DNA of 64,000 nt, from positions 96,001-160,000 of the IMG/VR virus record IMGVR_UViG_3300034283_002790; one strand, 5' to 3'. Each line of letters starts with the position of its first letter. The first letter of the stretch is position 1. Source of the stretch: a virus. Position numbers and translations under genes: made by a program. Positions 237 to 48,468 of this stretch are shown piece after piece. The notes beneath the pieces are model-generated. The model was not told where the DNA came from. It worked only from the letters and a program-made list of their open reading frames with translations, and did not search any database.

Positions 237-1805
237 TTAAAATTGAACTGGTTTTCCTGGATTACCAGTTAAACCTTGATCATCAATAAATTTGTCTTTG
301 AGATATTGTCTGAAATCTGGAATACCATAATTTTCAAAACCCCCTCTTGATATGTATTTAAACTCTCCAGTGTCTAATGCTTGTTTTATTAATGAATTAT
401 AATCATTTGAGTTTTTTGCATTGGTAATTTTAGACCAGTCAATAAGACTATCATCACCAAGAACATTCGATATGAAATTCGTATTTTTTTGTGGTGGTGT
501 TTGAATTGAAACCGGTGGTAAATCAAAAATGTCAGGTACATCATTTGGTTTATAGGGACCTCCTTCGTTTTTAGAATACATGTTTGAGTAATCGGACGGA
601 AGTGGTTTTTTTGTTATTGGATCTATTCCTGGTGATACAGTTGAGATCCCAGTTTTATAATCAATGGGTCCCAATAATTCATATCTATAATGAATTGCGG
701 GGGTCAAGGCTTTATCCCCTGAAATGGTACCACCCTTTTTATATCCAGATATGGCAGTTTGTATATCTTCGAACATTTTTTTTTGTAAATTACTATTTAT
801 AACATCTACTGGAATATAAATTGTTACCCCCTGTTTTCCATATTGATATCCACCTGGTTTAAATGCGTCTAATGAGAGATGTCCAGTTCCCCCAACCTTA
901 CCATGTGCTCCATATTTTTCAATTACAGGTGTAAGTGCATCAGTCAAATAAACCAAATCTTTTATGTCTTCACCAAAGACATGAAATTTCCATCCACTAG
1001 AAACCCCAGATCCAGTACGGATCGTTTTCCAACCAAAAGAGTTGTGAATTTTTTCTAATTCTTCTTTTGTGTATTTGTTTAAATATGATTGTGGATCTGT
1101 TGAATCTATATTTGGTAGGTTTTGAGAAATAGGTGAAGATTGTCCTTGAAGTTTTAAAGTGTTTAACTGGAGTTGGGTGTTGTAACAACTTTCTTTAATG
1201 AAATCTTTAAGGTCCGGGGATATAAAACTTTCTTCAACTTTTTTCAAAATAATTGGTAGTTGTATTTCCAAAATGTCAACTGCTCCTTGTGTCATTCGAC
1301 CCTGACTCAAATCAAAATAAGCACTATTAAAAAATTTTTTTACACTATCATGTAATTGCTTATCTATCTTTTCAAGACCTACAATTTTTCTTTCTAATAT
1401 TTTAAAATTTTTATTACCAACTATATCCGCAACATCTTGTAATATCGAATCTGCCTGACTTTTTCCGACAATCGATAATAAATTACTTGCAATTTCACTT
1501 TTGGTACTTCCACCAGTTATTGTTTTAAGATCGTCAAAGGTAAGATTATCACCGACATTTTTTCCAAGTTTTTGAGTTATAAGTTTTGAATTTTTTGCGG
1601 TGTTTAAAATTGAAGTTTCAATCTGACTTGCAATTTCTGACCCTAAAGTTTTAACCATACCTGGAGTTGCACCATCCAAAATTGATAATGCGGTAGGTCC
1701 GGGACCTGGTGTCAACGATTCTTTTATAACTCCAAATCCCATTCCCATAACATTAAAAATCTGGGATATTTTTTCTAATTCTTCGTTAAGTGTTCTTTTT
1801 TTCAC
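237..1805 (-). CDS. Leader-bearing protein with an OspF/SpvC/LanKC-type phosphoSer/Thr lyase-like domain
   Basis: GWKFHV...GKVG...GKQGVTIY...GD...HYRY; N-terminal half paralogous to 1802..3256. Confidence 0.55.
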   Translation of the reverse strand: MKKRTLNEELEKISQIFNVMGMGFGVIKESLTPGPGPTALSILDGATPGMVKTLGSEIASQIETSILNTAKNSKLITQKLGKNVGDNLTFDDLKTITGGSTKSEIASNLLSIVGKSQADSILQDVADIVGNKNFKILERKIVGLEKIDKQLHDSVKKFFNSAYFDLSQGRMTQGAVDILEIQLPIILKKVEESFISPDLKDFIKESCYNTQLQLNTLKLQGQSSPISQNLPNIDSTDPQSYLNKYTKEELEKIHNSFGWKTIRTGSGVSSGWKFHVFGEDIKDLVYLTDALTPVIEKYGAHGKVGGTGHLSLDAFKPGGYQYGKQGVTIYIPVDVINSNLQKKMFEDIQTAISGYKKGGTISGDKALTPAIHYRYELLGPIDYKTGISTVSPGIDPITKKPLPSDYSNMYSKNEGGPYKPNDVPDIFDLPPVSIQTPPQKNTNFISNVLGDDSLIDWSKITNAKNSNDYNSLIKQALDTGEFKYISRGGFENYGIPDFRQYLKDKFIDDQGLTGNPGKPVQF

Positions 1806-3256
1806 AAAAGTTTTTTTATTTTATTTATTTCCCTGTTCAATGATTCATTCATACCAGGAAGTGTATTGATATTATAAAATCCTTTATTTTTCAAATCTTC
1901 CATATCTTTCTTTTGTTTGTCCATCCATGTTTTATAATTATAATCACCCTCTTTGGGCATATCGTACCACTTATCCCATTTGTCTAGTTGTTTTTGTATT
2001 TCTTGAGAATTTTGAAGTTGATTATAATTTAACTGATTTTTTGTGTTTGTTGTCGGTGGCTCTATAGAAAAATCCCAACTAAAGGGACTTGACCATCGTG
2101 GGTCAAAATTTGCCAAATCACTTGGAGGAAGTGACGTATTAATCCTTAAAGTATTATCTTTATATTTTTTAATAATGAAATCTCGAAAATTATCAGTACC
2201 AAACTTTTCGAATCCTGTTATTGGAAAAAGTTCGGCAGCATCTCTGATTGTCGCCTCCTTTTCAATCGGGGACATATCTAAACCTATGCTTTTTAAAAGT
2301 TGAAGTCCGGCACCAATCGATCTGATTATTGTTGTTTCCAACCAATTTTTCAACCCCCACTTTTCAATTGATTCCGCATCTTGAATAATAAGTCTTTGTA
2401 TCCATTCCATAGGGAATGCATCTTCCTTAAATTTAATGTTATTGAAATCAATTAATTCTGGATCGAAACTATTATTCGAAAATGTCGTAGAATAAGTTTT
2501 TAGATTTACTGGGGTATAACTTGGTTTTTCGTGAAAAGTCATGTTGGGCCAGTCGTCAATACTAGGCTCAACATTTTTTACTTGAGGTGTTGAAGAAGGT
2601 GAAAGTTCTTTTGAAAATTTATGAGTATTAATTTGTGTTTGAAAACTATCTAAGACTCTCTCTAAATCTACTTTTAGAGTTTGATCCATTTCGATGGTTT
2701 TTAACTGTTCTTTTAATTTTGGAATTGTAGCCTCCATTACCTCACAAGCAGTTTCAAAAGTCGCCTCATCATCTATACTTTTACTAAATTGTGTCTGTAA
2801 GTCTTGTAAACTTGTTTTCAATGCTTGTTGATTAGTTTTATCAAGTTGTTTAACATAACTTCCTAAAGCAGTTAAATTTTTTGGATTAATTTTATTTAAC
2901 AAAAGATCATCCAAAACTTTTGAACCTTCCGATCCTAGTTCTTTTAAAACCATTTCTGCGGCTGAAGATTTTGTTGTTTGACCATAAAGTGTTTTGATAT
3001 CATCAAAACTTACATTGTCACCAATTTTTTTTCCCATTTTATTCAAAATTAATTCTGAATTTTTTACGGAGGTTAAAATTGAATTTTCAATCTGAGTTGC
3101 AAGTTCTGTACCCAAAGTTTTTACAAGTCCTGTACTTGATGCATCTAACGCACCCAAAATTAATTTATCGCCTGGTCCCACACTTTCATTCAACAAATTT
3201 AATCCAAAACAATTTTTAATTTTTTGAATTTCTTTAATTAGTTTTTTATTATTCAT
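1802..3256 (-). CDS. Hypothetical protein, paralog of 237..1805
   Basis: Shared VKTLG.E.A.QIE.SIL...KNS.LI..K.GK..GDN..FDD.KT block; start moved to MNNKKLIKE after a TATTTAT motif. Confidence 0.7.
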   Translation of the reverse strand: MNNKKLIKEIQKIKNCFGLNLLNESVGPGDKLILGALDASSTGLVKTLGTELATQIENSILTSVKNSELILNKMGKKIGDNVSFDDIKTLYGQTTKSSAAEMVLKELGSEGSKVLDDLLLNKINPKNLTALGSYVKQLDKTNQQALKTSLQDLQTQFSKSIDDEATFETACEVMEATIPKLKEQLKTIEMDQTLKVDLERVLDSFQTQINTHKFSKELSPSSTPQVKNVEPSIDDWPNMTFHEKPSYTPVNLKTYSTTFSNNSFDPELIDFNNIKFKEDAFPMEWIQRLIIQDAESIEKWGLKNWLETTIIRSIGAGLQLLKSIGLDMSPIEKEATIRDAAELFPITGFEKFGTDNFRDFIIKKYKDNTLRINTSLPPSDLANFDPRWSSPFSWDFSIEPPTTNTKNQLNYNQLQNSQEIQKQLDKWDKWYDMPKEGDYNYKTWMDKQKKDMEDLKNKGFYNINTLPGMNESLNREINKIKKLL

Positions 3257-3298
3257 GATAATAAATATTCTGAAATTATTGTTTTTTTTCAATTCATA

Positions 3299-3305
3299 TA
3301 TTTAT
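3299..3305 (+). promoter_or_regulatory. TATTTAT putative phage (late) promoter motif, plus-strand example
   Basis: 15 nt upstream of the ATG at 3321; the motif follows the coding strand. Confidence 0.5.
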
Positions 3306-3320
3306 ATTAAAAAACTTAAT

Positions 3321-47121: not shown

Positions 47122-47135
47122 ACTTAATAAATATA

Positions 47136-47489
47136 TTAATCGGTAAATTCTAAATTCATAGTTTTAATCATCCAGATTGGTTTTTCTCTTTTTTTCAAGG
47201 CATCAACCCAATCTTTTGCACTTGGTATTTGATTTGCACAGTCTTCTCTAACATGTTGTTCTCCAATATATCTCACATAAACCAATTTACCGTCACTATT
47301 TAAAAATGAACTTCCAAAAATTTTTTCACATTCAAAAATACCTTCTGAATGATGCCTAAACAGTCTATGATCAGAATGTCCAATCCAACCTTTAGTTTCA
47401 TCAAACCAGTTGTGGATTTTGATATAATCTTCTTCTTTACCTCCAAATTTTTTAACAGAGGATTTTGCGTGTAATTCTGGATGTGCCAT
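47136..47489 (-). CDS. DUF6915-like His-rich protein
   Basis: MAHPELHAKSSVKKFGG..EDY..IH.WFD...HR.FRHH.EGI...IGEQHVREDC. Confidence 0.65.
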   Translation of the reverse strand: MAHPELHAKSSVKKFGGKEEDYIKIHNWFDETKGWIGHSDHRLFRHHSEGIFECEKIFGSSFLNSDGKLVYVRYIGEQHVREDCANQIPSAKDWVDALKKREKPIWMIKTMNLEFTD

Positions 47490-47523
47490 ATTTTTTTTTT
47501 CAAAAGTACAATATTTATTTAAT

Positions 47524-48468
47524 ATGTACAATATTATTAAAAAAATTTTACTTGAAGAAACTCAAGATTCTTTTCTTACTAAGAACGAAGTATTATTTTT
47601 CAAATTTCTGAATATTTTTAAACAAAGTAAACAAAGTTATACAACCAGACAGGAAATATTAAATTTAATTCGGGATCAAATAGGAAATTTTGGTCTTGAT
47701 TCGAAAAAAGTAGACTACTATTATGACCTATATACCGCAAATTTTAGAGAGGATGGAAGGTATGATTTAATAACTCAAGATAATTTAAAAAAGTTTTATG
47801 ATAAAACAGTTCAAAAAAGAACAACAAATACAAATGCTAAGGATCTAGTCAATAATTTAAAACCATTTAGGGGATCTAATTTAACCGCTAACTGGGAAGA
47901 TGATAACTATGGTGACTGGGGTTACGTGGTTTTATCATATGACTGGTACCCAATTTACATTTATAAATACGGTAAATGGTTTGAAGTTGAATCGAAATAT
48001 TCTATGTCAACTGCAAAACATATGAGTAACGTGTACCCAAGTGTGTCAAGGGGTGACATAATTAAGTTGAGTCAAAATGACATGGTTAAATTAAGAAAAG
48101 GTTGGAAAGACTTTTCGCAGGGTTTAGAATCCAAAAAACAAGATCTGCTTAATGATATAGAAAATATGATTCAATCTGGAGAAATTATCAAAGTAAGAAC
48201 AGGTTGGTATCCAAGATTGAGAATTTCATTTAAATATGAATCAGTCAATGAAAATAATGAAACTTTGAATTTAGATGTCAGAGTAACCAATGTTGAAAAA
48301 GTTATTGGTAATTCAATTGATAGGTCCTCTGGAGACTTCTTTATGAATCAAATGGAAGGGGTTACTCGTGATACCGTAAAGGATTATTTGAAAGAAAAAA
48401 TTAACGAAATTATAAAAACCACTTTGGGATTCAAAGTTAATATTAATTTAAATATTTCATTTGAATAA
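47524..48468 (+). CDS. Leader-bearing hypothetical protein
   Basis: MYNIIKKILLEE; TATTTAT at 47512-47518. Confidence 0.75.
   Translation: MYNIIKKILLEETQDSFLTKNEVLFFKFLNIFKQSKQSYTTRQEILNLIRDQIGNFGLDSKKVDYYYDLYTANFREDGRYDLITQDNLKKFYDKTVQKRTTNTNAKDLVNNLKPFRGSNLTANWEDDNYGDWGYVVLSYDWYPIYIYKYGKWFEVESKYSMSTAKHMSNVYPSVSRGDIIKLSQNDMVKLRKGWKDFSQGLESKKQDLLNDIENMIQSGEIIKVRTGWYPRLRISFKYESVNENNETLNLDVRVTNVEKVIGNSIDRSSGDFFMNQMEGVTRDTVKDYLKEKINEIIKTTLGFKVNINLNISFE

Follow-up and report, generated by a model that had tools for sequence, protein, structure and literature searches.

Shared N-terminal leaders on unrelated genes of an uncultured T4-type phage: a candidate multi-family expansion of the capsid-targeting system

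Why should some forty open reading frames (ORFs) of a single phage, mostly unrelated in the remainder of their products, begin with the same few short peptides? The question is raised by a 64,000-nucleotide stretch of viral DNA (hereafter the window), which spans bases 96001-160000 of the 187,384-bp IMG/VR record IMGVR_UViG_3300034283_002790 (GC 30.7%) and comes from an uncultured freshwater T4-type large phage. The initial annotation of the window had proposed that about 40 unrelated ORFs share N-terminal leaders of five families, that the leaders end in aliphatic-X-Glu, and that they form a modular tag for packaging an arsenal of effectors into the virion. With moderate confidence, we read these leaders as a variant of the T4 system of capsid targeting and gp21 processing, much enlarged and with several tag families.

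Regular-expression and hidden Markov model (HMM) scans bore out the count. In the window, 39 ORFs open with a leader from one of six families (A, 9; B, 12; C, 10; D, 3; E, 2; F, 2 to 3), and beyond these 39 there is one A copy at an internal Met, one 24-codon A remnant and three in-frame internal copies of C. The five families proposed at first are all real; a sixth, E, with the consensus FIITEEEK.RIL.LH, had been lumped in with them. The consensus sequences of the others are MKKIIRLTE.DL.RIVK..I.E (A), MKIIITESQ (B), MNLQE.I.RILREE (C) and RFKQLLES (D). All strong matches begin at a Met close behind an upstream stop codon. The record-wide count with leader HMMs that had been suggested as a check gave at least 47 leader ORFs; since CheckV puts the completeness of the record at 64%, the leader counts for the record are lower bounds.

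Leader A is a sharply bounded module of 22 residues, and its profile matches 7,886 proteins (representatives of 50%-identity clusters, E ≤0.001). In 140 of the best 150 of these proteins it stands at residue 1, and the same 150 also hold 64 internal copies. Conservation across 196 copies, drawn from 150 diverse proteins, is highest at Glu9, Leu12, Glu22 and Leu7: Glu9, within L-T-E, is kept in 191 copies, and Glu22, within I-x-E, in 187. Information content is 3.9 bits at Glu22 and only about 1 bit one residue further on, where a linker rich in Asp, Glu and Asn begins, and Ser directly follows the first Glu in 153 of the 196 copies. Family B keeps Glu7 in 27 of 29 copies, family C has the sites L-Q-E and L-R/K-E, and every family carries at least one aliphatic-x-Glu. 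At sequence level, the proposal that the leaders end in this motif thus holds for A, which stops at Glu22, and for C, and is weaker for B. Because aliphatic-x-Glu is common by chance (it occurs in 17% of internal 10-residue windows, or 1.9 times per 100 residues), the evidence lies in positional conservation and not in the presence of the motif. Phi-x-E-S, for its part, is found in the first 13 residues of 5-8% of proteins, versus 1.0-1.4% of internal windows, in three genomes.

The families appear to be related distantly at most. In profile comparison, A and B matched with a probability of 24%, in an alignment that pairs their Thr-Glu-Ser, and A and C with one of 11%. A Pfam search returned no model for the leader, and a word-indexed search with residues 1-40 retrieved near-identical orthologues only.

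What follows the leaders is highly variable. We clustered the payloads of this record and of two relatives, G001 and G004 (91 leader proteins, 90 with payloads long enough to compare), and obtained 66 clusters, 59 of them singletons; one cluster occurs behind leaders A, B and C. Among 29 homologues of a payload with an ADP-ribosyltransferase (ART) fold, at least four leader types are seen, or none, and the Glu that terminates the leader is kept in at least 90%. Leaders are therefore exchangeable between payloads. The payloads also turn over quickly: homologues in two relatives exist for only 11 of 37, versus 137 of 237 for all ORFs. Pfam domains start directly behind the leader, as does DUF2237 from residue 20. 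A side observation is a 13-member payload family with a conserved segment containing Gly-Gly soon after the leader; it stands behind leaders A, B and C, includes window ORFs 26443-26838, 32147-32626 and 33125-34603, and is amplified in G004.

The diversity of payload domains listed at the outset was confirmed in part. Verified domains are PG_binding_1 (two), VanY/M15 (two), DUF2237, DUF6576 and the ART fold, so that M15, DUF2237 and ART stand, whereas SGNH, GNAT-like, lyase-like and lysozyme-like domains were not recovered with Pfam and PHROGs. An HExxH payload had been listed as well; the only HExxH found belongs to a protein without a leader, a SprT-like metallopeptidase (PF10263, E 1.3e-14) encoded at window 37621-38085 (-) inside the family C array. 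By Pfam and PHROGs, most payloads are ORFans, and for this reason the "effector arsenal" is a presumed one; a protein atlas search with two large payloads gave no usable match. An AlphaFold model of the ART-fold protein (window 32623-33108) has a mean predicted local distance difference test score (pLDDT) of 88, with the leader helix at 55-61 and the payload above 90. The best structural match of this payload is 6kyf, annotated as an anti-CRISPR protein (E 6e-5), and further matches include RES and MbcT toxins, RhsP2, PARPs and exotoxin A.

Is it the peptide or the underlying DNA that is maintained? Conserved Leu, Thr, Ser, Arg, Ile and Val residues of leaders A and B are encoded by varying codons, in proportions that follow the genome, which argues for selection on the peptide. 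Of A, B and C, only family C has DNA that is conserved beyond the needs of the peptide. Rare codons recur there (AAC in 9 of 12 copies, against 25% in the genome; CTA in 10 of 12, against 9%; also TCC and AGG), and this indicates either a recent spread of family C leader DNA through recombination or a constraint on it at the nucleic-acid level. Moreover, at window 32147-36440 (-) the leader DNA is near-identical in unrelated neighboring genes, a sign that the leaders may have undergone gene conversion or recombination. One could propose, then, that the shared 5' ends matter chiefly as nucleic acid, that is, as cassettes of promoter and first codons used for shuffling or translation control, of which the peptide is a by-product. 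The recurrent rare codons fit this idea, as do the tandem, abutting arrangement of family C members, the frequency of fused cassettes, and the precedent of promoter early stem-loop (PeSL) cassettes in the hyperplastic regions of T4-type phages (PMC2839356, PMC4122927). PeSL cassettes, too, are conserved short elements beside variable genes in plastic regions and may promote exchange, and the near-identity of family C leader DNA between unrelated genes resembles them. However, a PeSL is a non-coding promoter and stem-loop, whereas the element studied here is coding and in families A and B is conserved as peptide only (PMC2839356, PMC4122927). The DNA upstream of the leaders has only an 8-nt motif in common, the peptide of leader A is conserved across thousands of clusters, and shuffling of cassettes would account for the spread of leaders but not for retention of the peptide. 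We regard this explanation as improbable, while shuffling of cassettes at the DNA level has probably helped family C to spread.

If the peptide is what matters, a T4-like reading predicts a T4-like head and a protease to go with it. Both are encoded outside the window, in T4 order: large terminase, portal (phrog_213), two small proteins, protease, scaffold-like protein and capsid protein. The prohead protease gene, the search for which had been suggested earlier, was found at genome positions 45951-46688; it encodes a Peptidase_S77 protein (PF03420, E 1.4e-22, 80.6 bits against a cutoff of 27; phrog_207) that aligns with the crystal structure of T4 gp21 (5jbl, E 2e-16). Its His95 and Ser158, which by analogy to T4 gp21 we take to be the catalytic residues, are invariant in 19 orthologues. 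The major capsid protein is of the Gp23 type (E 1.5e-73). The scaffold-like protein, of 496 residues and acidic, is assigned by position and composition only.

The head proteins themselves point to cuts after aliphatic-x-Glu. Residues 1-60 of the capsid protein are invariant across 80 aligned sequences, and variation starts right after I-N-E, which corresponds to the cleavage position of T4 gp23. In the scaffold-like protein, an invariant V-K-E-S lies just before a hypervariable acidic stretch, and I-N-E-S and L-I-E-S are invariant near the C-terminus. Other head proteins have no enrichment in the motif, with the weak exception of a 238-residue protein between portal and protease (11 observed versus 6.5 expected, p 0.03).

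Leader genes and head genes may also be co-regulated. The sequence TATTTAT[AT], in sense orientation and within 45 nt upstream, precedes 18 of 37 leader genes (49%) and 13 of 33 genes of the structural region (39%), capsid, scaffold, protease, portal and terminase genes among them, versus 10 of 103 replication and glycan genes (10%); antisense controls gave 3, 2 and 5, respectively (5-8%). Because this promoter-like motif is common to leader and head genes, the leader genes may be expressed late.

Linkage between leaders and protease was followed in 14 large leader-bearing records, of which ten were tested directly for S77 and four (G001-G004) via the capsid protein. A T4-type head is present in 12 of the 14. 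The S77 protease was found in 8 of the ten directly tested records, the two without it being 47% and 71% complete, and in all six records of at least 90% completeness; in G001-G004 the capsid protein is present and the protease gene lies just upstream in their loci. Leader A has 9-15 copies in each of four relatives. As far as tested, then, leader tags are widespread and confined to phages with the protease. In a separate observation, the complete, leader-bearing 269-kb record IMGVR_UViG_3300032296_003307 carries two Peptidase_S77 genes, at 31291-31773 and 233494-233940. A quite different partner enzyme would be a radical-SAM/SPASM protein, with the leader acting as a recognition sequence of the kind seen in ribosomally synthesized and post-translationally modified peptides. 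This proposal, which we rejected as highly improbable, finds no Radical_SAM or SPASM match in the record and no above-cutoff match in five relatives at 93-100% completeness, in which a single sub-threshold match was seen.

The suggestion of a modular packaging tag is thus partly supported, through its genetic components, namely exchangeable peptide modules, an S77 protease, a head module in T4 order and a promoter-like motif, while docking to the core, cleavage and ejection of the tagged proteins are steps that we infer. In the tag, a short hydrophobic stretch would precede a basic amphipathic helix, with aliphatic-x-Glu sites as the boundaries. A tagged protein would be synthesized late, at the same time as those of the head, and the tag would dock the payload to the core of the prohead; the Peptidase_S77 protease, of gp21 type, would clip the tag after Glu, and the payload, now free inside the head, would exit with the DNA. 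The in-frame internal leader copies of fused cassettes would serve as cut joints, in which case their carriers (three C copies in the window, and the 64 A copies among the best 150 database proteins) may be multi-module precursors.

The concept is already known from T4, and the cleavage biology of T4 and phiKZ that had been cited with the initial annotation is correct (PMC9026906, PMC3012670, PMC10052503). T4 gp21 cuts after L/I-X-Glu, and T4 internal proteins carry N-terminal capsid-targeting propeptides of 10-19 residues that suffice to bring foreign proteins into the head (PMC9026906, PMC3012670). This capsid-targeting sequence (CTS) is carried by IPI, IPII, IPIII and Alt and removed by gp21, according to Mullaney and Black 1996 as cited in PMC9026906 and PMC3012670. 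An ADP-ribosyltransferase, Alt is packaged and trimmed by gp21, with loss of a 7-residue propeptide (PMC9026906). T-even internal proteins are poorly conserved between related phages, and T-even relatives swap in other proteins with CTS-like starts (PMC9026906, PMC3012670). In our phage, likewise, short N-terminal propeptides ending in aliphatic-x-Glu would stand on unrelated, fast-turning-over small proteins, the gp21-type protease and gp23-type capsid genes are homologous and in the same order, and one payload is an ART-fold enzyme, as is Alt. The differences are considerable. There are about 47 leader genes in an incomplete genome versus four in T4, and about six leader families versus one; leaders have 13-24 residues versus 7-19 (PMC9026906), with a conserved amphipathic helix, two conserved Glu sites and in-frame internal copies. 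By eye, a T4 CTS and the leaders have only the Met-Lys start and the terminal motif in common. The new elements are the scale of the system, its division into several tag families, the leader architecture with two Glu residues, and the copies that lie inside proteins.

Giant phages offer a second comparison. phiKZ and SPN3US cleave after Glu (PMC10052503), and in phiKZ, 201phi2-1 and SPN3US, with proteases gp175 and gp245, there are more than 50 different head proteins, and cleavage falls after Glu in a three-residue motif (PMC10052503, PMC5694885). The SPN3US protease prefers Ser at P1' (PMC10052503), which may be compared with the Ser after the leader and scaffold Glu here. Some propeptides of these phages are short and N-terminal (20 and 24 residues), and some precursors are cut at several sites; however, the motif there is A/S/G-x-E and most propeptides are long (PMC10052503, PMC5694885). 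No interchangeable family of short leaders has been described for phiKZ, 201phi2-1 or SPN3US, and the capsid protein and protease of our phage are much closer to those of T4 than to those of giant phages.

Several observations weigh against the packaging reading. The aliphatic-x-Glu motif is frequent in this Lys-, Glu- and Ile-rich proteome; the conserved Glu residues of the leaders could be a mere helix cap or salt bridge, and in family B the invariant residue is not a Glu at all but Gln9. The leaders, with their long conserved helix, exceed the 10-residue minimal T4 tag. The scaffold-like protein contains the motif about as often as expected (10 observed versus 9.5), and the payloads are not depleted of it (observed/expected 1.04, versus 1.14 in other ORFs), this last test being uninformative because an x-Asp control shifts in the same way. 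When the leader-core HMM was run on all ORFs, head-module proteins did not score, except for a 162-residue protein at genome 39303-39791 (+) (L002:19303-19791; phrog_27331), which starts with a leader A/C-like helix (9.5 bits, E 0.017); an impression gained by eye, that many head proteins have leader-like starts, was dropped, since the HMM gave this one extra match. The protease linkage comes from large contigs only, perhaps all of one broad T4-like lineage, and some 47 loaded proteins would exceed anything demonstrated for a T4-type head. Docking of leader A1 to the N- and C-terminal regions of the scaffold and to the protease, run without controls, scored 0.00 and weighs neither way.

In the main rival reading, the leader is a general docking helix for some other shared partner, such as a chaperone, an adaptor, DNA, a membrane or a host target, with no packaging or cleavage and with an incidental aliphatic-x-Glu. 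The leader core is indeed an amphipathic helix of basic character, in which positions 12, 15, 16, 19 and 20 are hydrophobic, and internal A copies retain a 16-residue core without the Met-Lys-Lys start, so that on this account the leader would work away from the N-terminus; the invariant Gln9 and the absence of an enrichment or depletion signal point the same way. Yet a helix of this sort does not explain why conservation stops exactly at the Glu of a protease motif, why invariant sites in the scaffold-like and capsid proteins repeat the four-residue pattern, why leader and head genes have a promoter-like motif in common, or why the leader has so far been seen only alongside S77 proteases. We consider the docking helix doubtful, and prefer capsid targeting followed by gp21-type processing.

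A bolder version of capsid targeting is more doubtful still, namely a multi-tag cargo code. Leaders would then be two-cut modules, cleaved after both conserved Glu residues, that load the products of close to one fifth of the genes into the prohead and also act as joints in cargo polyproteins; the several families might set amount, place or order of release, and the released 13-residue basic helices and new N-termini of the cargo might have roles of their own, for example in neutralizing the charge of DNA.

If the packaging reading is true, about one gene in five of this lineage, which is abundant in freshwater, codes for a protein that is delivered alongside the DNA, far beyond the handful in T4. 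Thousands of ORFan phage proteins would then become candidates for factors of host takeover or anti-defense in the first minute of infection, the ART-fold enzyme being an example, and the leaders would be natural short tags for putting foreign proteins into phage heads.

Table 1. Leader-bearing ORFs and leader copies in the window (window coordinates)
Position	Strand	Family	Product and features	Support
237-1805	-	F	522 aa, no known domain	
1802-3292	-	F-like, weak	496 aa	by eye only, without HMM support
3321-3662	+	A	113 aa; true start is internal ATG of longest ORF	50 bits
7644-8480	-	E	278 aa, PG_binding_1	
8505-9074	-	B	189 aa, DUF6576	
9074-9934	-	B	286 aa, phrog_2355	
9948-10520	-	B	190 aa	
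10530-10979	-	A	149 aa	
11386-11808	-	D	140 aa	
12476-12913	-	A	145 aa	
13257-13643	-	B	128 aa; Glu replaced by Pro	
13687-14145	-	A	152 aa	
14168-14743	-	B	191 aa, weak VanY/M15	
14788-15681	-	E	297 aa, VanY peptidase	
15711-15782	-	A, remnant	24 codons then stop, just upstream of the VanY gene 14788-15681; looks like a decayed cassette or payload-swap leftover	
16385-16894	-	C	169 aa	
16924-17811	-	F	295 aa, PG_binding_1 / endolysin-type PHROGs	
17820-18143, 18146-18478, 18495-18824, 18826-19077	-	B	four tandem ORFs	
19148-19579, 19583-19978	-	A	two tandem ORFs	
20030-21244	-	D	404 aa	
24223-24837	-	A	start is internal Met of longest ORF	20 bits
25394-25636, 25652-25996, 26057-26392	-	A	three tandem ORFs	
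26443-26838	-	B	131 aa; payload cluster also behind leaders A, C	
27727-28074	-	D	115 aa	
32147-32626	-	C	159 aa	
32623-33108	-	C	161 aa, ART-fold payload; leader a low-confidence separate helix	
33125-34603	-	C	492 aa; second in-frame leader copy 33560-33610	
34600-34926, 34932-35276, 35276-35608	-	C	three tandem ORFs	
35610-36440	-	C	276 aa; internal leader copy 35988-36038	
36446-37543	-	C, internal only	365 aa, without N-terminal leader; internal copy 37097-37147	
38145-39059	-	C	304 aa, DUF2237 directly behind leader	
39083-40057, 40065-40481	-	C, weaker	two ORFs	18-21 bits
43817-44620 (weak), 44634-44861	-	B	two ORFs	
47524-48468	+	C-like, weak	314 aa	alignment only

As regards relatives of this phage, the closest cultured ones are Flavobacterium phage vB_FspM_immuto and Microcystis phage Mel-JY01, with capsid identity of about 41%; the nearest cultured phage hints at a Flavobacteriia-like host. 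Leader A was not found in these two nearest isolates, and megablast and tblastn searches against cultured phages gave no match. At least 597 IMG/VR contigs encode a related capsid protein (tblastn, E ≤1e-3); identity in the best 80 is 76-99%, with 79 of the 80 at 76-87%, and complete genomes of 257-321 kb are among them.

Two features of the window lie apart from the leaders. An IS605-type TnpB-like ORF of 415 aa (22195-23442) adjoins a direct-repeat array, visible as a repetitive plus-strand ORF at 21788-22111, the whole region extending over 21625-23478. The sole tRNA of the window is a tRNA-Asp (GTC) at 60874-60947 (-).

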